This document shows, piece by piece, positions 6,859 to 47,476 of a DNA stretch of 64,000 bases. The position numbers and the translations under genes are program-made. Positions within the stretch are counted from its first letter, which is position 1. The number at the start of each line of letters is the position of its first letter. This DNA comes from Deltaproteobacteria bacterium. GTDB taxonomy: Bacteria > Myxococcota_A > UBA9042 > PHBI01. The stretch spans positions 15-64,014 of the forward strand of contig WYBB01000133.1 of the NCBI GenBank assembly GCA_011526585.1. The letters are read 5' to 3'. The notes under the pieces are model-generated. The model saw only the letters and a program-made list of their open reading frames with translations, made no database searches and was not told where the DNA came from.

Positions 6859-8217
6859 TTGCGCGTCACGACCGTCTCCCTCGCCCTGATCTCGATCGTC
6901 TCCTTCGGTCTCGCTTGCGGTGACGACGCGCTCGATCCGATCGCGCGCGACACGAGCCCCGAGGTGCTCCTGCCCGAGACGATCGTCGGGGACACGACGC
7001 CGGTCGACACGACCCCGGTCGATACGATGCCACCGCAGGACACGACCCCGGTCGACACGCGGCCGGCCGACACGACGCCGCCGCAGGACACGGTGCCGCC
7101 GCAGGACACGATGCCGGCGGACACGACGCCGCCGCAGGACACGACGCCGGCGGACACGACGCCGCCGCAGGACACGACGCCGGCGGACACGACGCCGCCG
7201 CAGGACACGACGCCGGCGGACACGACACCGCCGCAGGACACGACGCCGGCCGACACGACACCGGCCGACACGACGCCGGCCGACACGACGCCGGCCGACA
7301 CGACGCCGGCCGACACGACGCCGGCCGACACGGCCGACACCGACACCGGGCCGCAGGCCTGTCCCGATCCTTCGCGCGAGACCGTGGTCACACACTCGAG
7401 CATCTTCCGGCAGGTCAACTTCTCCGGCGCGCGGAACGACGTGCGCTTCGAGAGCGAGATGTGCGGCGATCCGCCCGACTCGGCCGAGCGCACCTATCGC
7501 TTCGAGCTCACGCAGCCGACCGAGATCTACACCGCCACCGACTGCGGCTGGGACTGCGAGCTCGTGCTCACGCGCGACGGCTGCGACGACCTCGACATCA
7601 TGGCGTGCGAGGCGACTATCGGCGAAGAGGCCTTCGGCCAGGTCTACAACGCCGGCACCTACCGCCTCTTCGTCGAGGGCGACGACCCCGAGGACGTCGC
7701 GCCCTTCGATCTCATGCTCAACATCCATCGCACCGCCGGCCAGAGCCCGTGTCAGGCGCAGGCCCTCGACGTCGTCACGGCGGGCAACTGCGTCGATCCC
7801 TTCGCCGGTAGTCCGCGCTACGAGCTCGGCGTCAGCGGACAGACCCAGGCGAGCGACGTCGACGACTTCTTCGTGCAGGACGTAGACGGCTGCACCCACG
7901 ACGGTGACCACATCGGCGGTGCCCCCGACCGCGTCTATTCGTTCACCCTGCCCGGCACGCGCGAGGTCGAGGTCACGCTCTCCCCCGATGGCTGGGACGC
8001 GCTCCTCTACGTGACCGGCTCGCCCTGCGGCGCGCGCAGCCAGGTCGAGGCCTGCTCGGACAGCCTCATCGGCTCGAGCGAGACGGTCTCGCTGACCTTG
8101 CCCGCCGGCACCTGGTACATCGTCGTCGACGGCTTCGGGGAAGAGACCTTCTCGGGCGGCGCCTCCGGGCCCTTCGACCTGTCGATCCTCGTCTTCGACG
8201 ACGCCTGCGACGAGTGA
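6859..8217 (+). CDS. Lipoprotein with a long Pro/Thr-rich tandem-repeat linker and two Cys-containing beta-sandwich (PPC-like) domains
   Basis: TTG start sits 4-5 nt after GGAGGTG. The lipobox is SFGLAC-GDD. The stop overlaps the next gene's start (GTGA at 8214-8217). Confidence 0.75.
   Translation: MRVTTVSLALISIVSFGLACGDDALDPIARDTSPEVLLPETIVGDTTPVDTTPVDTMPPQDTTPVDTRPADTTPPQDTVPPQDTMPADTTPPQDTTPADTTPPQDTTPADTTPPQDTTPADTTPPQDTTPADTTPADTTPADTTPADTTPADTTPADTADTDTGPQACPDPSRETVVTHSSIFRQVNFSGARNDVRFESEMCGDPPDSAERTYRFELTQPTEIYTATDCGWDCELVLTRDGCDDLDIMACEATIGEEAFGQVYNAGTYRLFVEGDDPEDVAPFDLMLNIHRTAGQSPCQAQALDVVTAGNCVDPFAGSPRYELGVSGQTQASDVDDFFVQDVDGCTHDGDHIGGAPDRVYSFTLPGTREVEVTLSPDGWDALLYVTGSPCGARSQVEACSDSLIGSSETVSLTLPAGTWYIVVDGFGEETFSGGASGPFDLSILVFDDACDE
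6991..7347. repeat. Coding tandem repeats: 33-bp units (DTTPPQDTTPA, about 4 copies) followed by 15-bp units (DTTPA, about 6 copies)
   Basis: Read directly: repeated gacacgacgccgccgcaggacacgacgccggcg, then ccggccgacacgacg. Confidence 0.9.
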
Positions 8218-9053
8218 GCGCCGGTCCGCCCGCCCCAGGCGATCGTCGCGCCGCGCTCGAGGCGCTGTGGCGTCAGGGCCGCAGTGCGTGGCCCGCGCTC
8301 GAGCTCGGGCTCGATGCGTTCATCGCCTGGGTGGAGTCGCGCTTGCCCGCCGCTCAGGATCCGAGCCAGCTCGTCGCCGCCGACCTCTACCTGAGCGTCG
8401 CCTGCCTCTGCGGTGTACCCGGTGCGGCCGCGGCCTTCGTCGACGGGCCGCTCGCCGCGACCGAGCGGCATCTCGACACGATCCTCCGGAGCCCGGAGGC
8501 GCGCCAGGAGCACCTCCAGGCGCTCGCGGTCTTCCTGCTCGCCCCCGACCCGACGGGCGCCGAGCCGCGGCTGGCCCAGTACAGCGGCCGCGGCGCGCTC
8601 GCGGTGTGGCTGCGCATGACCGCCACCCGCCGCGCGCTCAACCTCGAGCGCGGCAAGAAGAAGGTCGTCAGCCTCGACGACACCGCTCCCGATCGACTCG
8701 CCCAGATCGCCGACTCCGACCCCGAGCTCTCCGTCTTGCGGCGTCGTCACAAGGACGAGATCGCCGCGATCTTCCGCGAGGCCACCGCCGCCACCCCGGC
8801 CGACGAGCGCGTGCTCTTGCGCCTGCACTACGTGCAGGGCTCGACCCTCAACGAGCTCGCCGCGCTCTACCACACGAGCCGCTCATCGCTGCATCGCCGC
8901 ATCGAGGCGGCGCGCGAGGCGCTGATGGCGCGGATCGCCAGCCTGGTCAAAGCGCGCATGCGCATCGATCAAAGCCAGCAGGGCAGCATGCTGCAGATCT
9001 TCCAGAGCGACCTGCGCGAACAGTTGCGCCTCATGCTCCGCGACGAGGCCTGA
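8214..9053 (+). CDS. Sigma-70 family, ECF-like sigma factor of the kinase-associated type
   Basis: Region-4-like HTH: RVLLRLHYVQGSTLNELAALYHTSRSSLHRRIEAAREAL. Region-2-like segment: GRGALAVWLRMTATRRALN. A Ser/Thr kinase lies downstream in place of a classical anti-sigma factor. Confidence 0.7.
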   Translation: MSAGPPAPGDRRAALEALWRQGRSAWPALELGLDAFIAWVESRLPAAQDPSQLVAADLYLSVACLCGVPGAAAAFVDGPLAATERHLDTILRSPEARQEHLQALAVFLLAPDPTGAEPRLAQYSGRGALAVWLRMTATRRALNLERGKKKVVSLDDTAPDRLAQIADSDPELSVLRRRHKDEIAAIFREATAATPADERVLLRLHYVQGSTLNELAALYHTSRSSLHRRIEAAREALMARIASLVKARMRIDQSQQGSMLQIFQSDLREQLRLMLRDEA

Positions 9054-9147
9054 AAAAAAATCGTCGGCCGCCTGGGACGGTGTGGCCTCGTCGTGTCCCC
9101 CCACTGAACGCGACGGAAGTCGCTCACGAACCAAGCGAGGACAGGAC

Positions 9148-9339
9148 ATGCTCAAGGTGAAGTCGAACGTGAAGGCGGGCGGGCTCAGCGTGATCAACCA
9201 CGGCCAGAAGCTCAAGGTGAAGTCGAATGTGAAGGCGGGCGGGCTCCGCGCGCACAACCACGGCCAGAAGCTCAAGGTGAAGTCGAACGTGAAGGCGGGC
9301 GGGCTCAGCGTGATCAACCACGGCCAGCGCCTCGCCTGA
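9148..9339 (+). CDS. 63-aa Lys-rich peptide built of three 20-aa tandem units (KLKVKSNVKAGGLxxxNHGQ)
   Basis: The ATG at 9148 is preceded by GAGGA. GC3 is high. One repeat copy differs by a synonymous AAC/AAT change plus a 3-codon substitution. The longer ORF from 9082 adds a non-coding-looking N-terminus. Confidence 0.55.
   Translation: MLKVKSNVKAGGLSVINHGQKLKVKSNVKAGGLRAHNHGQKLKVKSNVKAGGLSVINHGQRLA
9151..9330. repeat. Three near-perfect 60-bp direct repeats (in-frame, coding)
   Basis: ctcaaggtgaagtcgaaYgtgaaggcgggcgggctc... starts at 9151, 9211 and 9271. Confidence 0.95.
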
Positions 9340-9405
9340 GGCGGCGTCGCATCGGCGTGGCGGCCGGGTACGAGGCCCGCCCCTACCGAGCCATGGTGTC
9401 TCGTA

Positions 9406-9426
9406 GGGCGGCCCTCGTGGCCGCCC
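9406..9426. terminator. GC hairpin gggcggcc-ctcgt-ggccgccc downstream of the repeat-peptide gene; copy A of a REP-like element
   Basis: An 8-bp perfect stem read directly. The 19-mer cggccctcgtggccgcccg recurs at 39339-39357. Confidence 0.4.
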
Positions 9427-9519
9427 GGGCGCCATCCGGCGCGCTCGTATTGATCCGCGGCGCGCTCCCATTCATGCTCGGCTCGTCTCGATGATGCGTC
9501 CAGCCGTCACCCCAGCTCC

Positions 9520-12654
<3,135 letters not shown>

Positions 12655-12728: not shown

Positions 12729-14465
12729 CTATTGGCAGGTCGGCAGCGGCAGGTTGAGCAACTGAGACCACGTCCAGCTCGCGCTCGTCGGTGGGCTGCC
12801 GCCGCTCCAATCGTACTCGGTCACGCGCATCGCGCCGTGCACGAACCCCAGCGCCTGCCGCACTTGGCCGTCGTCGTCGCTCCACAGGTGCAGACGATAC
12901 GGCACCACCATGCAGGTGTGCTCCAGCATCGCGAGCACATGCCCGTCCATGGCGTCCACCACGTGGATCGTCAGCGGTGCCGGCGTTTCCGACACCGGGA
13001 GCTTCTCGCCCAGCCCGGTGTGGTAGAGCCACTGTGCGCTCAGCGCACCGAGCGGTGCTCCGTACAGCGTCGTCGGCTCGAAGTCGGCCCTGCCCGAGCC
13101 CGCGCCTCCGCCCGACGAGCCCAGCGCCAGGAGGTTCTCGAGCCCGTGCTCGAGCCGCGTCAGCGCCACCGATCCGGGCACGGCCGTGCCCGCCGGGTCC
13201 CCCAGCGAAAAGGCCAGCGGCCCGGTCACGAGCGCACCGCTGCCCTGGTTCTGCACGCGGTCCCACGTCGCCGCCGTGCCAGCCACCGGTGTGATGGTGA
13301 GCGCCCCGAACTCGATCACGAGCCGCAGCCGGTCCACCTGCTGCGCGTGTCGCGCCGGTTCGATCCGCAGCCCCGTCGCCACCACCGTCGTGAACACGAG
13401 CGACGAGATCCCCTCGACCTCGTACGGCGTGAACGTGGCCGTGCTCCAATGACCCCCGGTGGTCAGCGTGCGCGTCACCGCCTTGAGCCCGACCCCGAGC
13501 TCCACCTCCAGCACCAACGGGTCGAAGTCCAAGCTGCCCCCCCCTGCGCCGCCGCTCTCCGAGCCCACGGCGCTCGGCATCTCCGCGGACACCTCGAGGC
13601 GCCGCACGATCAGCACCGCCGACTCGCTCTCGACCCCACCGGTCGCGTCCAGCACGAGCTCGCCGATCGCGGGCGGCGTCGGCTCTTCGCCCGGGCCCCA
13701 CGCCTCGGGTCCCATGGGCCCCACCGGGCCCGGCGCGCCCGGTGCTCCGGGCGCCCCCGGCGTGCCCGGCGTGCCCGGTGCCCCCGGCGTGCCCGGAGCG
13801 CCCGCCGGTCCTTGCGGACCCTGCGGTCCCTGCGGACCCTGTGCGCCCTGCGCGCCCGCCACCCCCTGCGGACCCGGTTCCCCTTGCGGGCCCGCCGGGC
13901 CCGTCGCGCCGGCGGGACCGGGGAGGCCCGTGTCTCCGCGATCGCCTTTGGGACCCTCGGGGCCCGCCGGCCCGCGCTGGCCGGTCGCGCCCGCCGGGCC
14001 GATGTCGCCGCGTGGGCCCTCGGGACCCGCCGGACCACGCGCGCCGGTCTGGCCGGCGACCCCCGGCGGACCGACCGGACCCACCGCGCCGGGCGGGCCC
14101 GTGAGCCCACGCTCCCCGCGGATCCCCGGCTCACCCATCGCGCCGCGCGGCCCCTCCGGCCCCGCGGGCCCCATCGGACCCAGCGCGCCGACCATACCGT
14201 CTTCGCCCTGCGGACCGCGCGGGCCCGCCGGTCCGATCGGACCCATCGCGCCTTCGGGTCCACGCGGCCCGACCGCCCCATCGGGCCCGACCGGTCCGGG
14301 TCGGCCCGCGGTCCCTTCGAGCCCTTGAATACGCGTCTTGAGCGACTCGACCTGCGCCTGCAGCGCGGCGACCTCCGTCGGCGCGTCACCGCGATCCTCT
14401 TGCGTACAGCCCGACAAGAGGAAGGTGAGGAAGGTCGCGCATGCGATCCACGGCGTAGCGTTCAT
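12729..14465 (-). CDS. Lipoprotein with coiled-coil, about 67 collagen G-X-Y triplets and two tandem Hcp/tube-protein-like beta-barrel domains
   Basis: The ATG at 14465 sits 4 nt after GGAGGAG. The lipobox is FLLSGC. The uninterrupted GXY run spans about 13707-14315. The C-terminal halves each carry an ...S/GGGAGxG-(S/R)xDF(D/E)P... pattern resembling Hcp. Confidence 0.8.
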
Positions 14466-14687
14466 GAGCTCCTCCATGACGAGTCCGACATCATGCAGCC
14501 GATCGACGGTCTGGCGCAACCTGGCGTCGCAATTCGCGAACATACGCGCTCGCCGTGCCCGACTCGATCAGATCCGTCCTCGACGCTCGCGTCGCGCAGC
14601 ACGAAGTGCGCGCGCTCGGCCCGCTTGCCCAGCCGCGTCAGGACGTGGTGCATGCGGCTCGCCGCATCCGGACACCGGGCAACGCGA

Positions 14688-30276: not shown

Positions 30277-31089
30277 ATGAGCACATCGCGGATCTTCATC
30301 ACGGGTGGGGCCTCGGGCCTCGGGCGCGCGCTGGCCGAGCGATACGCGCGCGCGGGGTGGCGCGTGCTGATCGGGGACGTCAACGAAGAGCGCGCCGAGG
30401 AGACGCTGGCGGCGCTCGTCGGAGCGGGCGCGACGGCCGGGCGGATCGCGTGCGACGTGCGGCGCGAGGAGGACCTGGCGGCGGCGGCGGCGTGGCTCGA
30501 GCGTGAGTGGGGCGGGGTCGACGTGGTCGTCAACAACGCGGGCGTGGCGATGGCCGGCGGGATCGCCGAGATGTCGCTCGACGACTGGCAGTGGATCGTC
30601 GACATCAACCTGCTGGGGGTCGTGCGCGGGTGCAAGGTCTTCACGCCGATGCTTCGACGACAGGGCGGCGGGCACTTCGTCAACGTGGCGTCGATGGCCG
30701 GGCTCATCCACTTGCCGCACATGAGCGCGTACAACGCGACGAAGGCGGCGGTGGTGGCGGTGTCGGAGTCGCTGGCGTTGGAGCTGGCCGATGACGGGAT
30801 CGCGGTCTCGGTGGTGTGTCCGGCGTTCTTCCGGACGAACCTGCACGAGACGATGCGCGCGTCGAACGCGAGCTTCTCGGGCATGACGCGCGCCCTCTTG
30901 ACGAAGGCGCGGCTCGGCGCGGACGAGATCGCGCAGCTGGTCTACGACGCGGTGGCGAAGCGGGAGTTCCACATCCTGACGCACCCGGAGGGGCGCGCGG
31001 TGTGGATGCTGAAGCGCCTGGCGCCGTTTGCGGCGTACCGGCGGGTGATGCGACGCTCGGCGAGCGTGCTCATGTCGAAGCACCGGTGA
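30277..31089 (+). CDS. Short-chain dehydrogenase/reductase
   Basis: TGGASGLG, NNAG, and the YxxxK motif (SAYNATK). Confidence 0.9.
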   Translation: MSTSRIFITGGASGLGRALAERYARAGWRVLIGDVNEERAEETLAALVGAGATAGRIACDVRREEDLAAAAAWLEREWGGVDVVVNNAGVAMAGGIAEMSLDDWQWIVDINLLGVVRGCKVFTPMLRRQGGGHFVNVASMAGLIHLPHMSAYNATKAAVVAVSESLALELADDGIAVSVVCPAFFRTNLHETMRASNASFSGMTRALLTKARLGADEIAQLVYDAVAKREFHILTHPEGRAVWMLKRLAPFAAYRRVMRRSASVLMSKHR

Positions 31090-32038
31090 CGAGCCAGCGG
31101 GCGCGCGCGAGGTCGGGCAGGAGGCGCTGCCAGAAGCGCGGCGCGCGCACGAGGCGAGCCCAGGCGGAGAGGGCCTCGGGCAGGCGCTGGGGGTCGGGCG
31201 GCGTCGCGGTCGTGGGGGGCTCGGACCAGGCGGCTGCGAGCACGCCGAGGAGGATGAGGAGCGCCTGAACGAACGGGGGCACGGCGGGGTCGCCGAGGCG
31301 CAGGAAGAGCTGACGGCGGACGACCTCGAGGGCGAAGGCGTCGTGCTCGGGCGTGAGGGCGAGCGGCGGGGGCGCGGCGGGGTCGAGCGTCGGCAGGCGC
31401 GGCACGAGGTGGGCGACGCGGGAGGCGACGTCGGGTCCCTGGAGCGAGGCGACGGAGGCGAGGTCGAGCGCGCCGAGGAGGGTGCAGGCGCGCGCGGAAA
31501 ACGGCGGGGGCAGCGCGGGGAGGTGGCGCGGGTCGCCGATGAAGTGGCCGACGAAGAAGGGGATGGTGGCGCCGGGGGCGCGGGTGAGGCGGATGAGGCC
31601 CTGCTCGGAGGCGGCGACGTCAGCGGGCAGGCGGCGCTCCTCCTGCATGGCGGGCAGCGGGTCGACCTCGGGGCCGGCGCGCCAGGAGCGGTGGGTGCTG
31701 GTGCAGGCGGGGTCGAGGCCGACGCGGTAGCCGTCCTCGGCGAGGGTGGCGCGGCGCGGGAACTGCTGGCAAACCTTGGGTTTCTGGTCGGCGCCGAGGG
31801 TGGCGTGGATCGCGCAGAGGCGGTCGTCGGTGAGGAAGACGCAGCGGCCGTCGTCGCGCTGGCGCAGGGCGCCGTCGACGATGGGGTCGGCGATGCCGAG
31901 GTGTCTGGCGGCGCGCTGGATGCGGGCGCGTTCGAGCTGGTCGACGAGGGCGACGCGCCAGCCCTGGCAGCAGGTTCCGCAGGCGTGGCAAGCGTGGCGG
32001 AGGGGGCCCAGGGCGAGGAGACGAGGCTCGGTCTTCAT
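31070..32038 (-). CDS. YkgJ-family Cys-cluster (CxxCxxCC) protein with about 200-aa C-terminal extension
   Basis: CHACGTCCQGW...CVFL...RLCAIH...CQQFP. The 3' end overlaps the convergent SDR gene by 20 nt. Confidence 0.75.
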   Translation of the reverse strand: MKTEPRLLALGPLRHACHACGTCCQGWRVALVDQLERARIQRAARHLGIADPIVDGALRQRDDGRCVFLTDDRLCAIHATLGADQKPKVCQQFPRRATLAEDGYRVGLDPACTSTHRSWRAGPEVDPLPAMQEERRLPADVAASEQGLIRLTRAPGATIPFFVGHFIGDPRHLPALPPPFSARACTLLGALDLASVASLQGPDVASRVAHLVPRLPTLDPAAPPPLALTPEHDAFALEVVRRQLFLRLGDPAVPPFVQALLILLGVLAAAWSEPPTTATPPDPQRLPEALSAWARLVRAPRFWQRLLPDLARARWLVTGAST

Positions 32039-32068
32039 GGTGTGGGGACGGGGTTGGTGGTCGGTCGG

Positions 32069-33073
32069 TCAGTCGTCGCGCTCGCCGGTGGCGACCCAGC
32101 GGGCGGTGGCGGTGTCGGGGGCGAAGCGGGCCCAGAAGCCGTCGAGCCGGGAGACGCGCGAGAAGGCGGACAACGCCGGGCCGTAGCGGGCGGGGTCGGG
32201 GGTGGCGAGGGCGGCGCCGAGCGCGCCGGCGAGTACGACGAGGGCCTGGGCGCTGGGCGGGAGCACGTGGCCGCCGAGACGCAGGAAGAGGGTGCGCTGG
32301 AGGAGGTCGAGGGTGAAGGCGTCGAGCGCGGCGGGGAAGACGAGGGGCGGGAGGCGCTCGGGGGCGAGGCGGTTGGGCTCGGGCGGGAGCAGGCGCAGGA
32401 GGTCGATGAGCGGGGTGAGATCGGCGATGAGGCGCGGGCCGTTGTCGCGGTGGGCGAGGAGCTCGATGGTGCCGCGCAGGCGGTCGAGCAGGCGCGTGCC
32501 GAGGCCGAGGGGGAAGCGCTCGGGGGCGGGCAGGTCCTCGTCCGAGAGCAGCGCGGCGAAGCGCGGCAGGGTCATGTCCGGGCGGCGCGCGAGCGAGATG
32601 AGGTGGCGCTCGACGCGGGCGGGGCCGGGCTGGCGGTGCTCGTCGTGCTCGGTCGGGATGTACCAGAGGCTCACCTCGGGGCCGTCCGCGAAGGTGCGCC
32701 AGGTGGTCGTGCAGCCGGGGTCGACCCCGAAGCGCACGCCGTCCTCGGCGCGCAGGGAGCGGCGCGGGAAGAGCTGGCAACTCAAGGGCTTTTCGGCCTC
32801 GCCGAAGCGCGCGTGGATCCGGCAGAGGCGGTCGGGGCCGAGGAAGACGCAGGTGGCGTCGACCTGGCGGAGCTCGCCGTCGATGATCGGATCGGCCACG
32901 CCGAGGAGGGCGGCCTGCACGCGCACGCGCTCGCGCTCGGACTCGTCGGCGAGGCGCACGCGCCAGCCGCTGCAGCACACGCCGCAAGCGTGACAGGCGT
33001 GGCGTGGCGGGCCGAGGGTCGAAACCTGCCGTTCGGCGGCAGGTGGGCTTGGCGCGGAGGCGGGGTCGGGCAT
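32069..33073 (-). CDS. YkgJ-family Cys-cluster protein, tandem paralog of 31070..32038
   Basis: CHACGVCCSGW...CVFL...RLCRIH...CQLFP. About 60% identity by eye over the N-terminal 110 aa. Start ATG at 33073, with an alternative at 33109. Confidence 0.7.
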   Translation of the reverse strand: MPDPASAPSPPAAERQVSTLGPPRHACHACGVCCSGWRVRLADESERERVRVQAALLGVADPIIDGELRQVDATCVFLGPDRLCRIHARFGEAEKPLSCQLFPRRSLRAEDGVRFGVDPGCTTTWRTFADGPEVSLWYIPTEHDEHRQPGPARVERHLISLARRPDMTLPRFAALLSDEDLPAPERFPLGLGTRLLDRLRGTIELLAHRDNGPRLIADLTPLIDLLRLLPPEPNRLAPERLPPLVFPAALDAFTLDLLQRTLFLRLGGHVLPPSAQALVVLAGALGAALATPDPARYGPALSAFSRVSRLDGFWARFAPDTATARWVATGERDD

Positions 33074-33275: not shown

Positions 33276-34412
33276 ATGCGCGCGTTGTCGGCCGAGCGGC
33301 GACGGCGGCCCTATCTCCTCCTCACGGCGCTCCTCGGGATCGTCGCCTGGGTCGTGTGGGCCGCGATCGCCGAGGTCGGCGTACACCTGACCTCGGTCGC
33401 CGGCCGCATCGAGGCGCGCGAACCGGTCAACGTGCTGCGCGCCGAGGTCGACGGCCGCCTCGTCGCGGTGCACGCGGCGCTCGGGCAGCCGGTGCGCGTC
33501 GGCGACGTGCTCTACGAGATCGACGACGCCGAGGCGGCGATTCGCCGCGCCGAGGCCGCCGCCCGCATCGAGGCGATCATCGCCGAGCGCGAGGTCCTGA
33601 TGGCCGCGCTCGCCGCCGCCAACCAGGCCCGCGACGGTGGACAGGACGTGCTGCTCGCGGCGCTGGCCGAGGCCAGGGCCCAGCTCGCGCAGGCGCGCGC
33701 GGCCCTCACGCAGGCCGAGCGCGAGGTCACGCGCCTGGGCGGCCTCGTGCAGCAGGGCGGTGTCTCGCCCCAGGAGCTCGAGCGCGCGCGCGTCGCCGCG
33801 TCCCTCCGGCGCGCCGAGATCGGCGCCGCGCAGGCGCTCGCCGATCGTCTCTCCGCCGAGTCGGCCCGCGACACCTCCGATCGCACCGCCGCCGTCGAGC
33901 GCATGCGCCAGGAGCTCCTCCGCCTCGAGGCCGAGCAAGCCACCGCCGAGGCCGACCAGCGCTCTGCCGAGCTCGCCCGCGAGCGCCGGCGCGTGCGCGT
34001 GCCCATCGCGGGCCGCCTCGGCGAGCTCCCACTCCTGCGCCCCGGCGACTACGTGCAGACCGGCCAGGCCCTCGGCACCATCGTGCCCGACGGCGACCTG
34101 CACGTCGTCGCCTTCTTCGGCGCCGATCGCGCGCTCGGCTGGATCCGCCCCGGCGCCTCCGCGCGCGTGCGCCTCGACGCCTTCCCGTGGACCTGGTTCG
34201 GCCAGGTCTCCGCCACCGTCGAAGACGTCGCTCTCGAGCCGAAGGATGGTCTCCTGCGCGTCGAGCTCGCCCTCGCCGACGGACCCGCCGACGTGCCGCT
34301 CGGCCACGGCCTCACCGGCGAGGTCGAGATCGAGATCGAGCAGGCGAGCCCGCTCTCGCTCCTCCTGCGCGCCGCCGGCCGCCAGACCCGCCCGGAGACG
34401 CAAACCCCGTGA
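33276..34412 (+). CDS. HlyD-family membrane fusion protein (bacteriocin/type I secretion adaptor)
   Basis: N-terminal TM segment, long Ala/Glu/Arg coiled coil, then VRVPIAGRLGEL...GQALGTIVP lipoyl/beta-barrel motifs. The stop overlaps the next start (GTGA at 34409-34412). Confidence 0.85.
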   Translation: MRALSAERRRRPYLLLTALLGIVAWVVWAAIAEVGVHLTSVAGRIEAREPVNVLRAEVDGRLVAVHAALGQPVRVGDVLYEIDDAEAAIRRAEAAARIEAIIAEREVLMAALAAANQARDGGQDVLLAALAEARAQLAQARAALTQAEREVTRLGGLVQQGGVSPQELERARVAASLRRAEIGAAQALADRLSAESARDTSDRTAAVERMRQELLRLEAEQATAEADQRSAELARERRRVRVPIAGRLGELPLLRPGDYVQTGQALGTIVPDGDLHVVAFFGADRALGWIRPGASARVRLDAFPWTWFGQVSATVEDVALEPKDGLLRVELALADGPADVPLGHGLTGEVEIEIEQASPLSLLLRAAGRQTRPETQTP

Positions 34413-37138
34413 CGCGCCGCCGCCTGCTCGCGCCCGAGGTCGTGCAGACCTCGGCGATGGACTGCGGCCCCGCCGCGCTCAAGAGCCTGCTCGCCGGCCA
34501 CGGCATCGACGTCTCCTACGGCCGCCTGCGCGAGGCCTGCCAGACCGACGTCGACGGCACCAGCATCGACGTGCTCGAAGCGGTCGCCGGCCAGCTCGGC
34601 CTCGACGCCGAGCAGGTCCTCGTCCCCGTCGACCACGTGCTCCTCCCCGAGGCCAAGGCCCTCCCTGCCATCGCCGTCATCGTGCACCCCGACGGCCTCA
34701 CCCACTTCGTCGTCATCTGGGCCCGCCGCGGCCGCTGGGTCCAGGTCATGGACCCGGCCATCGGGCGCCGCTGGATGCGCATCGACGACTTCCTCCAGAC
34801 CCTCTATCGCCACACCATGGCCGTCCCCGAGGCCGCCTGGCGCGAGTGGGCCGCCGGCGACGAAGCCCGCGCCTCCTTCACCGCCCGCCTCGCCCGCCTC
34901 GGCCTCGGCGCCGCCGCCATCGACGACCACCTCGCCCGCGCCCAGGCCGACCCCGGCTGGCGCTCGCTCGGCGCCCTCGACGCTGCCTCGCGCTACCTCG
35001 AGCGCATGCTCGCCGCCGGCGCCATCCGCCGCGGCACCGAGGCCCGCGCCGCCCTCACCCGCCTCCTCGACGCCCCCTCGCCGGCCGCCCTCGAAGACCG
35101 CATCCCCGCCGCCTGGTGGACCGTGCGCGCCGCCCCGCCCGACCCCGACGACGGCTCCGCCCAGGTCCAGGTCACCGGCGCCGTGCTCGTCTCGGCGCGC
35201 GGCGTGCGCTCCGCCGCCGACCGCGCCGCCGCGCGCGACGCCCTCCCGCGCGAGCTCGCCGCCGCCCTCGCCGAGCCCCGCGAGCGCCCCTTCGTCGCCA
35301 TCGCCAACGCGCTCGCCGCCGACGGCTGGCTCGCGCCCGCCATGCTCGCGCTCACCGTCACGATCGCCGCCCTGCTCACCGTGCTCGAGGGCCTCCTCTT
35401 CCGCGGCCTCGTCGACGCCGATCGCATCCTCACCTCCCCGGAGGAGGTCTGGGGCGGCTGGGCCCTCGCCATCGCGCTCGTCGTCGCCCTCGCCACCCTC
35501 GAATGGCAGAACGCCCGCGTCTCCCGCCGCATCGGCCGCCACCTGGAGACCCGCTTCCGCGCCGCATTCCACGCCAAGATCCCGCGCCTGCCCGACCGCT
35601 ACTTCCAGAGCCGCCCCATCTCCGACATGGCCGAGCGCGGCCACATGCTCCACGTCATCCGCAGCGTGCCCGCGCTCGGCGCCCTGCTCGTGCAGTCCGC
35701 CGCCGGCCTCGCCGCCACCGTCGTCGGCGTCGTCTGGCTCGACCCCGCCTCGGCGGTCATCGTCATCCCCGGCGCCCTCCTCGCCCTGCTCATCCCGATC
35801 GTCGCCCACCCCGCCCTCGCCGAGCGCGACCTCCGCCGCCGCACCTACGCCGGCACCCTCTTCCGCCTCACCCTCGACGCGCTCCTCGGCCTCTCCGCCG
35901 TGCGCACCCACACCGCCGAGCGCGCCATCCTGCGCGAGCACGAAGGCCTCCTCGCCGACTGGCTGCGCGCCGGCGAGTCCGCCCAGCGCGTCGCCGTCCA
36001 GGTCGAGGTCGCCCAGTCCGCGCTCGGCGCCGCCCTCGCCGTCACCCTCGTGCTCGGCCACCTCGACCGCGAAGGCGCCACCGGCACGGCGCTGCTCCTC
36101 ACCTGGTGGGGCCTCCAGGTCCCGAGCTTCGCCCAGACGCTCGCCCTCACCGCGCGCCAGTACCCGCTCCTGCGCAACGCCCTCCTGCGCGTGCTCGAGC
36201 CCCTCGGCGCCCCGACCGACGACGACGCGCCCACGCCCGCCGCGCCCACCGCGCCCTCCAAAGAGAAATTGTCCACACCGCCCGCCACCACGCAAGCCCC
36301 CGTCGCCCCGATCGCCGTCACCCTCGAAGGGGTCAGCGTCGTCGCCGGCGGCCACACCATCCTCGCGTCGATCGACCTCACGCTCGCCCCCGGCGAGCAC
36401 GTCGCCGTCGTCGGCCCCTCCGGCGCCGGCAAGTCCAGCCTCGTCGGCCTCCTCCTCGGTTGGCACCGCCCCGCCGCCGGCCGCGTGCTCGTCGACGGCC
36501 ACCCGCTCGACCCCCGCACCCTCGCGGCCCTGCGCCGGCGCATCGCCTGGGTCGATCCCGAGGTGCAGCTCTGGAACCGCACCCTCCTCGACAACCTCCG
36601 CTACGGCGCCCCCGACGTGCCGCTCGCCGGCGCCGCCTCCCAGCTCCCCGCGGTCATGGCCTCCGCCGACCTCGCCGGCGTCGTCGAGGCCTTGCCCGAC
36701 GGCCTGCAGACCCGCCTCGGCGAAGGCGGCCTCTTCCTCTCCGGCGGCCAGGGCCAGCGCGTGCGCCTCGCCCGCGGCGAGCTCCGCCCCGACGTCGGCC
36801 TCGTCATCCTCGACGAGGCCCTGCGCGGCCTCGACCGCGACCAGCGCCACGACCTCCTCGCGCGCGCCCGCCGGCACTGGCACTCCGCGACCCTCATCTG
36901 CATCACCCACGACGTCGCCGAGACGCTCACCTTCCCGCGCGTCATCGTCATCGACAAGGGCCACCTCGTCGAGGACGGCGCGCCCTCCGACCTCGTCACC
37001 CGCGACACCCTCTACAAGCACCTCATCGACACCGAGCGCCAAAACCGCGATCACCTCTGGCGAAACCCCGTCTGGCGCCGCGCCCGCGTCGCCGATGGCC
37101 AACTGCACACCGCGCCACCCGGCGAGGTCGCCCCATGA
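34409..37138 (+). CDS. ABC transporter with N-terminal C39 cysteine peptidase domain (bacteriocin-processing exporter, permease plus ATPase)
   Basis: C39 catalytic motifs: QTSAMDCGPAAL, THFVVIW and VMDPAIG. NBD motifs: GPSGAGKSS, LSGGQGQRV and LVILDEA. Confidence 0.9.
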   Translation: MTRRRLLAPEVVQTSAMDCGPAALKSLLAGHGIDVSYGRLREACQTDVDGTSIDVLEAVAGQLGLDAEQVLVPVDHVLLPEAKALPAIAVIVHPDGLTHFVVIWARRGRWVQVMDPAIGRRWMRIDDFLQTLYRHTMAVPEAAWREWAAGDEARASFTARLARLGLGAAAIDDHLARAQADPGWRSLGALDAASRYLERMLAAGAIRRGTEARAALTRLLDAPSPAALEDRIPAAWWTVRAAPPDPDDGSAQVQVTGAVLVSARGVRSAADRAAARDALPRELAAALAEPRERPFVAIANALAADGWLAPAMLALTVTIAALLTVLEGLLFRGLVDADRILTSPEEVWGGWALAIALVVALATLEWQNARVSRRIGRHLETRFRAAFHAKIPRLPDRYFQSRPISDMAERGHMLHVIRSVPALGALLVQSAAGLAATVVGVVWLDPASAVIVIPGALLALLIPIVAHPALAERDLRRRTYAGTLFRLTLDALLGLSAVRTHTAERAILREHEGLLADWLRAGESAQRVAVQVEVAQSALGAALAVTLVLGHLDREGATGTALLLTWWGLQVPSFAQTLALTARQYPLLRNALLRVLEPLGAPTDDDAPTPAAPTAPSKEKLSTPPATTQAPVAPIAVTLEGVSVVAGGHTILASIDLTLAPGEHVAVVGPSGAGKSSLVGLLLGWHRPAAGRVLVDGHPLDPRTLAALRRRIAWVDPEVQLWNRTLLDNLRYGAPDVPLAGAASQLPAVMASADLAGVVEALPDGLQTRLGEGGLFLSGGQGQRVRLARGELRPDVGLVILDEALRGLDRDQRHDLLARARRHWHSATLICITHDVAETLTFPRVIVIDKGHLVEDGAPSDLVTRDTLYKHLIDTERQNRDHLWRNPVWRRARVADGQLHTAPPGEVAP

Positions 37139-39321
37139 CCGCGCCCACGCCGCCGCCGCCAGACGCCTCGCCGCTCGCCGCCTACGCCTGGCCCAGCGCC
37201 CACGTCGCCGACGCTCTGCGCGCGCTCGCCACCGTGAGCGGCCTCGGCCTCGCCCCCGACGCCTCGCTCCGCGACGACACCCCGCACGACGAAGAGTCCC
37301 TGCGCGCGCTCGGCCTCTCGCTCGGCCTCTCCCTCGACCCGGTGCAGGCGCCCTGGCGCGGCGCGACCGCGCTCGTCTCCGGCGGCCCCATGCTCGCCCG
37401 CCTGCCGGACGGCACGGGCTTCTTCCTCCTGCTCGCCGCCCGCCGCGGCCGCGCCCGCCTGCTCACCCCCGCGCTCACCGTCGTCGACGTGCCGGCCACC
37501 CTCGTGCGCGACGCTCTGCGCGCGCCCCACGTCAGCGCCGCCCTCACCCAGGTCGACGCCGATCTCGACCTCATCGGCGTGCCCGCCCCACGCCGCGCCA
37601 AGGCCCGCACCCTCCTCCTCGACGAGCGCCTCGGCCTGCGCCCGGCCGTCGTCGCCTTCGTCGTGCGCGCCGCCGGCTCGCGCTCGATCATCTCGCACCT
37701 GCGCGAGGTCGGCCTCTTCTCCGCGCTCGGCGCGCTCCTCGCCGCGCTCGTCACCCACTACGCGCTCGGCCTGTTCGCCTGGATCTTCCTCGCCTGGGGC
37801 GCGCTCGCCGGCCGCGTCGACCCGGGCTGGCTCATCGCCTGGACCCTCGCGCTCGCCTCCCAGGTCGCGCTGCGCGGCGTGCTCCTCGACGCCACCGGCA
37901 AGCTCGCCCTGCGCGGCGGCGCCGCCGTCAAGCGCCTGCTCCTCATCGGCGCCCTGCGCGGCGATCTCGATCAGATGCGCGCGCACGGCATGGGCGGCAT
38001 CATCGGGCGCACCGTCGAGAGCGAGGCCTTCGAGCAGCTCGCCCTCAACGGCGGCATGCGCCTCGTCATCGGCACCTGGGAGCTCGTCGTGGCGCTCGTC
38101 ATCGCCTCGCAGGGCGCCGGCGGCACGCTGCTCGTCCTGCTCGGCCTGCTCGCGCTCGTCGCCGCCGCGCTCACCGGCCTGCGCTTCCTTCGCAAGAAGG
38201 ACGAGTGGACGCGCGCGCGCCTCGCCATCACCGGCGACCTCATCGAGCGCATGGTCGGCCACCGCACCCGCCTCGCCCAGGAGTCCCCGAGCACCTGGCA
38301 CAGCGGCGAGGACCAGGCCCTCTCGGACTACGTGCAGCGCTCGGCCGCGCCCGACGAGCTCGAGGCCGCCCTCACCGTCTGGCCGCGCCGCGCCTTCATG
38401 GCGCTCGGCATGCTCATCGTCGCGCTCGCCGCCGGTACCGCGCCCGATCCGCTCGGCATCGGCCTCGGCCTCGCCGGCCTGCTGCTCGGCGCGCAGGCCC
38501 TCGACGCCACCGCCGGCGGGGTCGCCGCCATCGCCGGCGCCGTCGTCGCGCGCCGCGTGATCCGCGACCTCATCGACGCCGCCCGCCGCCCCGAGCGCAT
38601 CGGCGCGATCTTCCCCGCCGCCCCCGCACCCGCACCCGCGCCCGCCGCGCCCACGACGACAACCTCCACGGCCGCGTCCTCCGTGCCCGCGACGTCCCAC
38701 ACCCCGCCCACGCCGGTGCTCACCCTGAGCCGCGTCGGCTACACCTACCCGGGCCGCGCGCGTCCCGTCCTGCGCGACGTCGATCTCGAGCTCGCCGACG
38801 GCGAGCGCCTGCTCCTCGAGGGCGGCTCCGGCAGCGGCAAGTCCACCCTCGCCGCGATCATGGCCGGCCTGCGCCTGCCGAGCGAGGGGCTCGTGCTCTT
38901 GCGCGGCCTCGACCCCGCCACCTGGGGCGAAGCCTCATGGCGTCGCCGCGCCGTCGCCTCGCCACAGTTCCACGACAACCGCGTCATCGCCGGCACCTTC
39001 GCCTTCAACCTCCTGCTCGGCCGCGGCGGCCTGCCCGAGCCGTCCGCGCTGTCCGAGGCCGAGGCGCTCTGCCGCGAGCTCGGCCTCGGCCCCCTCATCG
39101 AGCGCATGCCCGCCGGCCTCCTCCAGCAGGTCGGCGAGTCCGGCTGGCAGCTCTCGCACGGCGAGCGAAGCCGCCTCTACCTCGCGCGCGCGCTCTTGCA
39201 GAACGCCGACCTGGTGCTCCTCGACGAGAGCTTCGGCGCCCTCGACCCCGAAAACCAGGGCAAGGCGCTCGCCTGCGCGCTCTCACGCGCACGCACGCTC
39301 GTCGTCATCGCCCACCCCTGA
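37135..39321 (+). CDS. Second ABC transporter permease/ATPase with degenerate (Cys-less) peptidase-like N-domain
   Basis: ATGA overlap at 37135-37138. NBD motifs: GGSGSGKST, LSHGERSRL and LVLLDES. The N-terminal 150 aa lack a catalytic Cys. Confidence 0.9.
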   Translation: MTAPTPPPPDASPLAAYAWPSAHVADALRALATVSGLGLAPDASLRDDTPHDEESLRALGLSLGLSLDPVQAPWRGATALVSGGPMLARLPDGTGFFLLLAARRGRARLLTPALTVVDVPATLVRDALRAPHVSAALTQVDADLDLIGVPAPRRAKARTLLLDERLGLRPAVVAFVVRAAGSRSIISHLREVGLFSALGALLAALVTHYALGLFAWIFLAWGALAGRVDPGWLIAWTLALASQVALRGVLLDATGKLALRGGAAVKRLLLIGALRGDLDQMRAHGMGGIIGRTVESEAFEQLALNGGMRLVIGTWELVVALVIASQGAGGTLLVLLGLLALVAAALTGLRFLRKKDEWTRARLAITGDLIERMVGHRTRLAQESPSTWHSGEDQALSDYVQRSAAPDELEAALTVWPRRAFMALGMLIVALAAGTAPDPLGIGLGLAGLLLGAQALDATAGGVAAIAGAVVARRVIRDLIDAARRPERIGAIFPAAPAPAPAPAAPTTTTSTAASSVPATSHTPPTPVLTLSRVGYTYPGRARPVLRDVDLELADGERLLLEGGSGSGKSTLAAIMAGLRLPSEGLVLLRGLDPATWGEASWRRRAVASPQFHDNRVIAGTFAFNLLLGRGGLPEPSALSEAEALCRELGLGPLIERMPAGLLQQVGESGWQLSHGERSRLYLARALLQNADLVLLDESFGALDPENQGKALACALSRARTLVVIAHP

Positions 39322-40962: not shown

Positions 40963-41181
40963 ATGTCGACACGGCTCTCCACAGACCTGGGAGACCCCCG
41001 TCTGATGAAGCTCCTCAAGGCCGAGGCCCTCGAGCGGGACACCAGCATCAAGGACGTGCTCACGCGCGCGCTCGAGGCCTACTTCGCCGAGCGTCTCGAG
41101 GCCAAGACGATCGCGCGCATGGCCGACTCGGCCTTCGAGGAGTGGGAGGACCCCCGCGACGCGGACTACGATCGATTGTGA
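40963..41181 (+). CDS. Ribbon-helix-helix (CopG-like) antitoxin
   Basis: 72 aa. STRLSTDLGDPRLMKLLKAEALERDTSIKDVLTRALEAYF. The stop overlaps the toxin start (GTGA). Confidence 0.7.
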   Translation: MSTRLSTDLGDPRLMKLLKAEALERDTSIKDVLTRALEAYFAERLEAKTIARMADSAFEEWEDPRDADYDRL

Positions 41182-41522
41182 CCGCCGGCGACGTCATCCT
41201 CGTTCGATTCCCCTTCTCGGACATCGAGACGACCAAGAAGCGTCCCGCGCTGGTCCTGACGGAGTCGATGCGCTCGCCTCGCAACCTCCTGGTCACGGTG
41301 GCCATGATCACGAGCCAGATCGAGGCTCTGAGGCTGGAGGGGGACGTGCTGCTCGGCAACTGGCAGGAGGCTGGCTTGCTGCATCCGAGCCTCCTTCGCA
41401 TGGCCAAGGTGGCTACCGTTGATGGCGATCTCGTCGACAGGGTCATCGGCGCGCTGACGCCGAGTGACATGCGCGCGGCAAAGCTGGCCTTCCGCCGCGT
41501 CTTCGCGTCCTGGGTGCGGTGA
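41178..41522 (+). CDS. PemK/MazF-family type II toxin
   Basis: GDVILVRFPFSDIETTKKRPALVL is the typical N-terminal strand motif. 114 aa, GTG start. Confidence 0.8.
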   Translation: MTAGDVILVRFPFSDIETTKKRPALVLTESMRSPRNLLVTVAMITSQIEALRLEGDVLLGNWQEAGLLHPSLLRMAKVATVDGDLVDRVIGALTPSDMRAAKLAFRRVFASWVR

Positions 41523-46800: not shown

Positions 46801-47476
46801 ACGCCTTCGGGTGGAAGGCGCGGCGGCCTCGCGTCTCGAACACGCGGGCGGCCAGGTTCGGGCCGACCCAGCCGAGCAGCGTCATGAGCGCTTCGGGCGC
46901 GGTGATCTCGAGGTAGTCGCCGGTGAGCACCCGGATGGTGGCGCCGCGCTCGCGCGCGTCCAGGAGCTCGCGTTGCAGCTGCAGGAGCCCGGAGCGCTGG
47001 ATGAACGCCGCGATGATGTCGATGCGTGTGGCCGTCCCGAAGAGCGTGCCCAGGTGCGCCTTGAAAGGGTCGTCGCCGCCCCTGGCGAGCCGTGTCATCG
47101 GGTCGCGCTTGTAGTTGCCCTTCCACGGGATGACGTGGCGCACGCCGCCGCGCGGGTCGTCCATGTCGCCGCGATAGCGCGGGATGAGGTGCACGTGCAG
47201 GTGGGCGACGGTCTGACCGCCGGCCTCGCCGACGTTGATCCCGATGTTGTAGCCGTCGGGTCGATACTCGCGCTCGAGCCGCGCCTTGACGACGGCGACG
47301 AGGTCCATGAGCGCGCGCTGCTCTTCGACGCTCGCCTCGAACCACGTCGCCACGAGCCGCTTCGGGATGATCAGCGCGTGGCCCGGACTCACCGGGAAGC
47401 CGTCGAAGATCGCGAAGGCCAGCGCGTTGCTCGCGATCCACTCGGACTCGGAGCGCTCGAGGAACGGTGAGCTCAC
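43877..47476 (-). CDS. 1199-aa fusion: HIT domain, PLD-family (HKD) nuclease, SF2 DEAD/DEAH-type helicase, DUF3427-like region, S24 LexA-like peptidase
   Basis: HIT: HLHVHLIP. PLD: FHPKAWRF...GSSNIS. Helicase: ATGLGKT, IVDEVHH, LGLTATP and QQLGRGLR. S24: AAAG...ASGDSMQ...WQLKRI. Confidence 0.9.
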   Translation of the reverse strand: MSSPFLERSESEWIASNALAFAIFDGFPVSPGHALIIPKRLVATWFEASVEEQRALMDLVAVVKARLEREYRPDGYNIGINVGEAGGQTVAHLHVHLIPRYRGDMDDPRGGVRHVIPWKGNYKRDPMTRLARGGDDPFKAHLGTLFGTATRIDIIAAFIQRSGLLQLQRELLDARERGATIRVLTGDYLEITAPEALMTLLGWVGPNLAARVFETRGRRAFHPKAWRFEWPERGVAFVGSSNISESALNHGIEWNLRIDRDEDREGWGRLVSGFEALWLEAHALDAEWIAAYARRRRPEEAGTRAADELARAEVEPPFAMPTPHAVQQEGLAALARARAEGRGRALLVLATGLGKTWLAAFDLIAAFGDRERAPRVLFLAHRGELLDQAAHTLGGALTARWPEARIDFCAGASGGLDADLVLASVQKVSRDPWLARLAAARWDYVIVDEVHHATAPTYRRVLDRVETGFVLGLTATPERQDEADLLGLFDDHLVYRADLGRGIGEGLLAPFAYFGLRDTTDFAPIPWRNRRFDPEALALAVETEARMERLWEAWQAHPGSRTLVFCASIRHATFATRWLAARGVRIEAVHSGPGSAERDLALARLRVGELDALATVDLFNEGVDVPAVDRVAMLRPTESPIVFLQQLGRGLRVAPGKERVTVLDFVGNHKVFLDRIGRLVSLGARDRDALRAFLDGEAPALPPGCSIEIELEAVDLLRRLLPAGRTELERTYRELRALRDERPRLGELFRLGLSPQALRPSGRSWFDLVRDEGDLSPDEVAVVAACGPWLRELESSAMSKCFKAIVIEVLLEHEALGTGMELGALAEASHRVIARSPELMRDLQGIKELPDPRRPDPEVWRRYWRKNPIAAWTAGAHFALEARAAEQHLVPRFAAPVGLEATLAELTRELVDYRLAQYRRRIAPTPDAGEVAFEARLGWSGRDPVLGFEPGVGPGVGAVTVRIESVPWDFRFTATGCAEAAPAGLGRRKNALPDLLRRWFGPTAGQRGTGSKGAVRFVRSSGMWWAAPVGAVAGAGGAVVIDLASRRVRAYATLRAAAGAIDRPDEPSSIEATWVELTREVAWAGEDDVFLVRASGDSMQGGLRPIHDGDWVALRWARGVGLGALEGKVALVQVPDPVDGFGWQLKRIVRTGPGWILRSDNPERPSFPASAETTAIATLLEVLRPDEVRAVDADDEQVP

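Follow-up and report, generated by a model that had tools for sequence, protein, structure and literature searches.

The window analysed here is a 64,000-nucleotide stretch of the genome of a Deltaproteobacteria bacterium (Myxococcota_A, contig WYBB01000133.1), and the subject of the analysis is a small gene located at 9148..9339 on the + strand. The open reading frame (ORF) starts with ATG at 9148 and stops with TGA at 9337-9339. Its translation is the 63-residue peptide quoted in an earlier, sequence-only reading of this DNA. The peptide consists of a Met followed by three 20-residue modules, each containing LKVKSNVKAG(G), a variable tail and NHGQ. It is strongly cationic (its 63 residues include 12 Lys and 2 Arg but none that is acidic) and contains no Cys. 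The modules are encoded by three 60-bp tandem units (9151-9210, 9211-9270 and 9271-9330, + strand), delimited with Tandem Repeats Finder (9150..9327, period 60, 3.0 copies, 91% matches, 0 indels, score 321) and by unit alignment. Units 1 and 3 are identical over 57 nt. Unit 2 differs from both by a synonymous AAC to AAT change and by four base changes within one 9-nt block, where AGC GTG ATC is replaced by CGC GCG CAC (SVI to RAH). The last codon of unit 3 is CGC (Arg), where the other units have AAG (Lys). Apart from this terminal Lys/Arg, all residue differences between units fall between the G-G and N-H motifs, in the segment that is hypervariable in the family described below. The three direct repeats, and their divergence by one synonymous change and one three-codon block, had been correctly described by the sequence-only reading. 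The 57-nt identity of units 1 and 3 argues for recent duplication or gene conversion, as it had proposed.

The repeats are intergenic between two regulatory genes, and high-GC genomes yield many spurious ORFs. On these grounds the 60-bp units could be taken for a DNA or RNA element (binding sites for a regulator, or a leader structure in the kinase mRNA) in which the ORF is an accident of base composition. This non-coding explanation was effectively excluded. The GC content of the peptide gene at codon positions 1, 2 and 3 is 0.60, 0.33 and 0.98, respectively, and the combination of a very high third position with a low second position is found in the peptide frame only. The flanking genes show the same pattern in this window of 72.6% GC. 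A GAGGA ribosome-binding site lies at 9136-9140 (+), 7 nt before the ATG, as had been reported from the sequence, and purine-rich sites also precede the homologous peptide genes. Scanning the region against Rfam gave no meaningful match. The amino-acid motif is kept in genomes of 50% to 75% GC from several phyla while the DNA diverges. When the gene was compared with its orthologue at locus L151 (loci are designated by L numbers), the conserved residues differed at third codon positions only and the variable segment differed freely. A chance origin of the 60-bp repeat is far out of reach, and conservation of the peptide sequence extends to other phyla. Taken with the many homologues (295 representative proteins, and at least 1,647 by profile), the codon-position composition and the third-position differences argue for a translated gene under selection, as had been claimed. 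That this ORF is a real gene and a member of the family is almost certain.

The peptide gene was confirmed to lie between a gene for an extracytoplasmic function (ECF) sigma factor and the adjacent gene for a transmembrane Hanks-type kinase. The sigma factor (8214..9053, +) was assigned to TIGR03001 ('Myxococcales family 1') with 159 bits for a cut-off of 154.6, and it is 68% identical to the sigma factor preceding the repeat peptide in L151. A pattern-based search for relatives of this sigma factor found none, a limit of the method since L151 holds this 68%-identical protein. The receptor kinase (9520..12654, +) has 1,044 residues. Its N-terminus carries an H-x3-C-x2-C zinc motif of the anti-sigma type, matched weakly by the models (zf-HC2, 19.6 bits for a cut-off of 22.2; ChrR anti-sigma, E 1.6e-4) and also found on the L226 kinase. 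It is followed by the Ser/Thr kinase domain (Pkinase, E 1e-38), a single transmembrane helix at residues 368-386 detected by hydropathy scan, and about 650 residues with TPR repeats. The TPR part is predicted to be periplasmic. Over 740-880 residues the protein is 33% identical to the kinases flanking the L008 repeat peptide.

Two further genes border this unit. The first (6859..8217, +) encodes a predicted lipoprotein of 452 residues, in which an extended repeat rich in Thr, Pro and Asp (DTTP/ADTTP units) is combined with a PPC pre-peptidase domain at the C-terminus. The sigma gene begins with a GTG that overlaps the stop codon of this gene, which may therefore be co-transcribed with the sigma, peptide and kinase genes; it is not conserved upstream of the L151 sigma orthologue. 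The second (12729..14543, - strand, 604 residues) converges on the kinase gene and encodes collagen-like Gly-X-Y repeats (Pfam Collagen, E 3e-32) resembling the Lcl/Scl adhesins.

Candidate expression signals were then located around the peptide gene. The motif TGGGACG-N12-CGTGTCCCC at 9073..9100 (+) occurs once in the window and is present with the same spacing upstream of the orthologous peptide gene of L151. It may be a sigma-dependent ECF-type promoter, a hint taken from these two sequences. Scans for sigma70 promoters and terminators around the gene gave nothing useful. After the stop codon of the peptide gene, a GC-rich inverted repeat (9361..9427, +) has 22-nt arms that are 82% complementary, and folding of 9337-9520 gave z = -2.1; it is a possible terminator or attenuator, on weak evidence. 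A second inverted repeat (9041..9093) with perfect 10-nt arms spans the sigma stop codon. As terminator or attenuator elements, the two may determine how much peptide mRNA is made relative to kinase mRNA. An exact match to 9215-9408 was found in one metatranscriptome contig of low depth, which ends at 9408. Further contigs of similarly low depth match parts of the sigma and kinase genes, which is weak evidence that the unit is transcribed. The source organism was found in many wastewater and sludge metagenomes.

Homologues of the peptide were sought at the protein and DNA levels. A word-index search with the single peptide gave no match. Exhaustive phmmer comparison with 1.84 billion representative proteins gave 295 matches at E <= 1e-3, 20 of them at E <= 1e-10, and a profile built from 40 members retrieved at least 1,647 proteins. 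Among the source names listed for these, all are 'hypothetical protein' except one evident mis-annotation. No Pfam or NCBIfam model matched the peptide or nine relatives (the window peptide gave noise only, MelC1 and DAP), and the model PF10685 for KGG-repeat stress proteins (GsiB/YciG type), tried on account of the 20-residue Lys/Gly repeats of those proteins, did not match the peptide or six relatives at E values up to 1. Species-representative genomes were scanned at the DNA level with the degenerate pattern K-V-K-x-N-V-K-A-G-G; 45 loci were obtained and 38 were kept as family members, from Acidobacteriota, Planctomycetota, Chloroflexota, Myxococcota and others. The looser pattern K-A-G-G-L-x3-N-H gave mostly chance matches, with family peptides in 11 of 119 loci. 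The other ORFs of the whole window were searched for the motif and none contains it. No description of the motif, or of the combined peptide, exporter and kinase-sigma system, was found in the literature. The family is thus large and unnamed and is encoded by many soil and sludge bacteria.

The consensus of the family unit is [LM]-K-V-K-[ST]-x-V-K-A-G-(G)-x3-5-N-H-N-[QER], with a repeat period of 18-25 residues and 1-11 copies per protein. In the profile built from 534 units, positions 1 to 5 are L/M, K/R, V/I, K/R and T/S (96%); positions 6 to 10 are variable, V/I/L, K (86%), A (90%) and G (96%); positions 11 to 14 are G (70%), hydrophobic, variable and variable; and positions 15 to 18 are N (87%), H (100%), N/S and Q/E/R. 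The three window units score 33-34 bits each against this profile. Two architectures were distinguished: repeat proteins, and very short ORFs that consist of M-K-V-K-T-N-V-K-A-G and a single tail of diverse sequence. When all fetched loci were pooled, 198 distinct leader ORFs were obtained. The motif directly follows the initiator Met in 173 of them; 154 are of the single-leader type, with a tail of median 9 residues (range 3-82), and 44 are of the repeat type. Each 20-residue unit of the window peptide resembles one such leader with a 10-residue tail, and the whole protein looks like three concatenated precursors. Some exporter-clade loci (L082, L090, L086, L125, L106 and L112) hold arrays of 5-15 tandem single-leader genes with family-specific tails, e.g. 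...KAGSALWGS, ...KAGLRIA, ...KAGSYRVRGTSGGF and ...GxGxDPNG. Some of these ORFs total only 13-14 residues, so standard gene callers probably miss them.

The sequence-only reading had pointed to a double-glycine motif in each unit. All three window modules do carry K-A-G-G, but in the family the second glycine is variable. The residue after K-A-G is Gly in 70% of the repeat units; among the 198 leader ORFs it is Gly in 44%, Ala or Ser in 17% (61% G/A/S in all) and another residue in 39%, and the Gly share is biased upward because the first scan required G-G. The conserved element, of 10-11 residues, therefore ends at K-A-G and is not a strict double glycine. The predicted beta-hairpins were not supported. 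AlphaFold2, run with a 30-sequence alignment, gave a pLDDT of 45.6 with no secondary structure and no stable fold, a low-confidence, unstructured model that would suit a leader or precursor peptide. A reading of the repeats as a functional amyloid or beta-solenoid was also tried and dropped, as it has no structural support and the peptide has no signal peptide.

A candidate processing exporter is encoded about 24-25 kb downstream of the peptide gene. Three genes on the + strand overlap end to end and form one operon: an HlyD-type membrane fusion protein (33276..34412), a 909-residue C39-peptidase ABC transporter (34409..37138) and a second ABC transporter subunit without peptidase domain (37135..39321). 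In alignments with PCAT1 and ComA, Gln13, Cys19, His99 and Asp115 of the C39-ABC protein align with the catalytic residues of PCAT1. The system had been called catalytically intact and without a precursor of its own, and both statements held: no substrate-like ORF was found near the exporter, and no other candidate substrate was found in the window. The C39-ABC protein is 47-48% identical over about 917 residues to the exporters of L028 (Acidobacteria) and L002 (Anaerolineae), which directly adjoin peptide genes. The HlyD protein is 37% identical to that of L028, and the nucleotide-binding domain of the second ABC subunit is 61% identical to its L028 counterpart. The best NCBIfam match of the C39-ABC protein is TIGR03796, at 206 bits for a cut-off of 853.3; HlyD reaches 27.5 bits with TIGR03794 for a cut-off of 156.2, and TIGR03797 also scores on the exporter. 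Because the TIGR03796 score is so far below the cut-off, the window exporter clade is considered as related to, but separate from, the NHLP type. Between the C39 peptidase and the membrane domain (residues ~135-315 of 34409..37138), about 180 additional residues are conserved in the clade; they match no Pfam model, have no counterpart in PCAT1 or in the NHLP-type model, and could be an extra substrate-recognition domain. Directly upstream of the operon and divergent from it, two tandem paralogous genes (31070..32980, -) encode proteins of ~300-320 residues. The CxxCxxCC zinc/iron-chelating domain was detected by Pfam in 31070..32038 only, and the N-termini of the two proteins are alike by eye.

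The link between peptide and exporter, speculative when first proposed, received strong comparative support in both directions. In the neighbourhoods of the 38 family loci, Ser/Thr kinases were found at up to 13 loci, a C39-ABC protein of ~910 residues with a second ABC at 10, HlyD at 6, ECF sigma factors of the PF07638/TIGR02999 type at 5 and MacB/FtsX permeases at 4. Peptide genes lie directly beside exporters orthologous to that of the window in L028, L046, L050, L053 and L159. In L046 the C39-ABC and second ABC genes are followed, all on one strand, by eight family peptide genes, among which genes for three paralogous receptor kinases and for TPR proteins are interspersed. In L050 the exporter is followed by eight small ORFs; in L053, from an actinomycete metagenome-assembled genome (MAG), the order is peptide, TPR protein, C39-ABC and ABC; and in L159 (Polyangia) a repeat peptide adjoins the exporter. 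For the reverse test, an alignment of six exporters was used and the best 80 of at least 594 exporter-clade loci were fetched. Between 1 and 15 leader peptides were found within 10 kb in 45 of these 80 loci, and chance occurrence of the leader motif is negligible. At family level the peptides are thus associated with a catalytically competent C39-ABC exporter, whichever partner is taken as the starting point. The window peptide is, from this comparison, a likely substrate of the window exporter.

The neighbours of the 80 exporter and 38 peptide loci were clustered. The recurrent neighbours were limited to transporters, kinases, sigma factors or activators, TPR proteins and histidine kinases; no conserved modifying enzyme, as would be expected for a RiPP precursor (post-translationally modified peptide), was found near the peptide genes. 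Graspetide, lanthipeptide and triceptide-type precursors were considered and dropped, there being no conserved ATP-grasp enzyme, lanthionine synthetase or radical SAM protein, and no Cys in the peptide.

The association with kinases and sigma factors was examined in a context census of 47 peptide-selected loci (mean length 7.5 kb). A kinase was found in 13 loci, a kinase-type ECF sigma factor in 12, an orthologue of a 360-residue TPR protein in 12 and exporter parts in 11; at least one of these was present in 25. The order is sigma, kinase and peptide(s) in L012, L035 and L042, and kinase, sigma and peptide in L052. In L243 the peptide is followed, 1.2 kb further on, by sigma and kinase. The L028 order is peptide, sigma, HlyD, C39-ABC, second ABC and peptide, and in L034 and L040 all components are in one cluster. 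The closest relative of the window arrangement is L151, from a Myxococcota MAG of 75% GC obtained from activated sludge: the orthologous sigma gene is followed by a 122-residue peptide gene (six 20-residue units, 60-nt period) and by the orthologous TPR protein gene, and a kinase gene converges. L226 holds a kinase with the zinc motif, a TIGR03001-like sigma factor and a one-unit peptide, and both there and in L052 the peptide follows sigma and lies beside a kinase. At the other family loci the sigma factors are of the PF07638/TIGR02999 type. Homologous repeat peptides in syntenic sigma/kinase loci, which had been set beforehand as a test of the gene, were thus recovered in L151, L226, L052, L042, L035, L012, L243 and L206. 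In some lineages an FHA-GAF-sigma54 activator replaces the ECF sigma factor; it was found in 13 of the 80 exporter loci (e.g. L072, 12647-14587). Sigma54-type -24/-12 elements precede 9 of 204 peptide genes, for 0.33 expected, and promoters of the TGGCAC-N5-TTGCA type were noted in the regions upstream of peptide genes in L203, L086, L125 and L215. In these lineages the elements show that the peptide genes are direct targets of the signalling output. Control of the window peptide by its sigma/kinase pair is, on balance, rather likely.

In all the associated kinases the kinase domain is followed by a single transmembrane helix, which places their TPR or PD40/Tricorn propeller domains outside the membrane. 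Identity among the three kinase paralogues of L046 falls from 89-91% in the kinase domain to 77-82% in the sensor domain. This would fit a divergence in specificity, without proving it.

A protein of about 360 residues with TPR_10/TPR_12 repeats also occurs next to family peptides (L046, 14235-15326; L053, 5227-6303; L080, 8066-9256; L026, 99-1250; L151, 4600-5679). It is 35-45% identical across Acidobacteria, Actinobacteria and Myxococcota, has neither signal peptide nor transmembrane helix, and looks like a fifth conserved component of the system. Family repeats and a TPR domain are fused in one protein, P0149 (517 residues). These partners could be explained if the peptide acted inside the cell, where the Ser/Thr kinase would use it as a substrate or pseudosubstrate with several sites, or where it would bind TPR proteins or the anti-sigma domain and so tune sigma. 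The position of the window gene within the sigma/kinase unit and far from the exporter would agree with such a role, as would the Ser or Thr present at position 5 in 96% of the 534 units and flanked by basic residues. An intracellular partner would leave unexplained both the two-way association with a dedicated peptidase exporter and the presence of a common N-terminal decapeptide on unrelated short tails, and the TPR and beta-propeller domains of the associated kinases are on the outer side of the membrane. This explanation is improbable, and nothing specifically supports the role of small intracellular sigma regulator that was one of the three suggested by the sequence-only reading. The secreted multi-module peptide is the best supported of the three. 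The remaining one, that of a ligand for the kinase, is plausible by analogy.

The peptide is probably secreted and tied to the signalling circuit, as far as can be judged from sequence comparison. The scheme preferred here, which is held tentatively, is that of an exported precursor of repeated leader and tail modules, the production of which is wired to the flanking sigma/kinase pair in an autoinduction loop passing through the TPR domain of the kinase. The precursor would consist of three modules, each with a 10-residue leader-like L/M-K-V-K-S/T-x-V-K-A-G element, a short variable segment and an invariant N-H. In a first step, the flanking ECF sigma factor would drive the peptide gene from its own promoter; this is suggested by the conserved order of sigma then peptide and by the promoter-like motif found in one orthologue. 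In a second step, the HlyD/C39-ABC/ABC2 exporter (33.3-39.3 kb) would recognise the K-A-G(G) leader, cut at or next to the glycine(s) and secrete the product(s), as the two-way neighbourhood association across phyla and the intact C39 active site suggest. In a third step, the least supported, the adjacent single-pass kinase would detect the extracellular peptide through its extracytoplasmic TPR domain, and the anti-sigma domain and kinase activity of this protein would release or activate sigma, closing the loop. This step is proposed from the kinase-peptide cassettes, from the external TPR or propeller sensors and by analogy to Gram-positive pheromone systems. Taken by itself, the proposal that the peptide is the ligand of the kinase is rather unlikely.

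Several observations weigh against this scheme. The leader is short and non-canonical, and with a residue other than G, A or S after K-A-G in 39% of the leader ORFs the cut site is uncertain. Cytoplasmic C39 domains normally cut one N-terminal leader, and multiple internal cuts would be unusual. The exporter lies 24-25 kb from the peptide gene, and the candidate promoter motif of the latter is absent upstream of the exporter operon. The standalone TPR partners, with neither signal peptide nor transmembrane helix, point to a cytoplasmic interaction in some systems. The L046 sensor domains diverge just moderately more than the kinase domains. The transcript support is at contig level and of low depth, and could be derived from DNA. 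Finally, Ser/Thr kinases are abundant in these phyla and their loose co-occurrence with the peptides is weak evidence alone; it is the tight kinase-peptide cassettes that carry the signalling argument.

The same exporter and sigma/kinase associations would be expected if the peptide were a secreted effector and not a signal. The sigma/kinase pair would then sense another cue (envelope stress, competitors or predators) and switch on a lysine-rich peptide secreted by the C39 exporter, which would be a cationic peptide of antimicrobial or bacteriocin-like type or else part of the surface or matrix. The strongly cationic composition and the alternation of hydrophobic and basic side chains along the conserved strand are in keeping with such a role. 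So are the MacB/FtsX-type permeases of four loci, which are often immunity or efflux pumps, and the presence of up to 15 slightly different peptides per exporter, which resembles bacteriocin or prochlorosin-type diversity. Characterised kinase-controlled ECF sigma factors are also described as turning on defence functions. Many family members, however, would keep tails of only 3-7 residues after leader removal, and a classical bacteriocin has to be longer; the clustered neighbours include no conserved gene dedicated to immunity; and the presence of one kinase per peptide cassette in L046 is hard to explain for a pure effector. A secreted effector is a possibility of lower standing than the autoinducing precursor.

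Extended to the whole family, the signalling reading becomes more speculative. Peptides with K-A-G leaders, the C39 exporter clade and receptor Ser/Thr kinases with ECF sigma factors or FHA-sigma54 activators could conceivably form a widespread undescribed pheromone system, similar to quorum sensing, in diderm bacteria (Acidobacteriota, Myxococcota, Chloroflexota, Planctomycetota and others). The peptide would be read by eukaryote-like kinases and not by histidine kinases, and tandem-module precursors would deliver several copies of a ligand or a multivalent ligand. Peptide signalling with dedicated processing exporters is textbook knowledge in Firmicutes and scarcely documented in soil diderms. 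Soil diderms have very many receptor Ser/Thr kinases and ECF sigma factors linked to kinases, and to our knowledge almost none of these has a known ligand. For hundreds of such kinases the family provides candidates for a genetically encoded ligand or output, and the 10-residue leader together with one exporter clade gives a handle to search for such peptides. At least 1,647 proteins that are now 'hypothetical' or uncalled could be named. A short, basic, non-canonical leader would broaden the known substrate rules of C39 exporters. For the organism studied here, a likely substrate is proposed for an orphan exporter and a likely target gene for a sigma/kinase pair.

Two other regions of the window were noted downstream of the exporter. 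At 41005..41522 (+), two overlapping small ORFs (58 and 114 residues) resemble, by eye, an RHH-like antitoxin and a PemK/MazF-like toxin. The gene at 43877..47476 (-) encodes 1,198 residues with HIT, PLD-like nuclease and ResIII/DEAD helicase domains and a C-terminal S24 (LexA-like) peptidase, an unusual combination.

The system was compared with known ones. With the double-glycine pheromone and class II bacteriocin systems of Gram-positive bacteria (ComC/ComAB/ComDE, BlpC/BlpAB/BlpHR) it shares a small ribosomal peptide with a leader-like N-terminal element ending in glycine(s), a C39-ABC exporter with the same catalytic residues, and a cluster in which genes for a membrane sensor and a dedicated transcription factor accompany that of the peptide. 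Canonical double-glycine leaders have about 15-30 residues, end in G-G, G-A or G-S and carry hydrophobic residues at -4, -7, -12 and -15. The window leader lacks this series of hydrophobic residues: read backwards, the stretch before G-G is A, K, V, N, S, K, V, K and L, with Lys at -4 and Ser/Thr at -7. The family leader (10-11 residues) is lysine-rich and strand-like, lacks LSxxELxxIxGG and can dispense with the second Gly. The module is repeated within one polypeptide and the hosts are diderms. The exporter has a second ABC subunit, an HlyD protein and the additional conserved region of ~180 residues, and the place of the histidine kinase and response regulator is taken by a Hanks-type Ser/Thr kinase and an ECF sigma factor or FHA-sigma54 activator.

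The Rap-Phr/RRNPP cassettes of Firmicutes are similar in their tandem-duplicated receptor and small-peptide genes, as in L046, and in the TPR domain as a recurrent partner. RRNPP receptors are cytoplasmic, and their peptides are exported by Sec and re-imported by Opp. The family described here has a dedicated C39 exporter, and most of its TPR or propeller domains are extracytoplasmic parts of kinases. The small double-glycine proteins of cyanobacteria (EbfG/PteB and PatS/HetC) illustrate the export of very small peptides or matrix proteins by C39-ABC transporters in diderms. They have no sequence relationship with the family, are not built from tandem modules and are not coupled to Ser/Thr kinases or ECF sigma factors.

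The NHLP/Nif11 precursors and their three-gene exporter (TIGR03794 HlyD, TIGR03796 C39-ABC and TIGR03797 ABC) were reportedly described by Haft and colleagues. The likeness lies in the three-gene architecture, TIGR03796 being the best match of the window exporter, and in the use of one leader on many divergent precursors beside one exporter. The family leader is unrelated to the nitrile hydratase alpha and Nif11 leaders (NCBIfam gave no match for the peptide and nine relatives at E values up to 1), the window exporter scores far below the cut-offs, and no conserved modifying enzymes are found near the family loci.

In kinase-regulated ECF modules the sigma factor is activated by direct phosphorylation and has no anti-sigma partner. 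An ECF sigma factor paired with a transmembrane Hanks-type kinase is also found in the ECF43-type EcfP/PknT system of Vibrio parahaemolyticus and in EcfK/PknS of Xanthomonas citri (PMC7826278). These two systems are not known to have an associated peptide or exporter, unlike the window system. The window sigma factor belongs to TIGR03001, and the window kinase carries the N-terminal zinc anti-sigma-like motif, whereas anti-sigma factors are typically absent from kinase-associated ECF groups (PMC7826278). The family, its exporter clade and the link to kinase-controlled sigma factors appear undescribed. The system works like the double-glycine pheromone/bacteriocin and NHLP/Nif11 systems, and it falls outside both on leader sequence and on model cut-offs. 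It is distinguished from them by modules repeated within one polypeptide, a short basic leader, diderm hosts and a read-out by Ser/Thr kinases.

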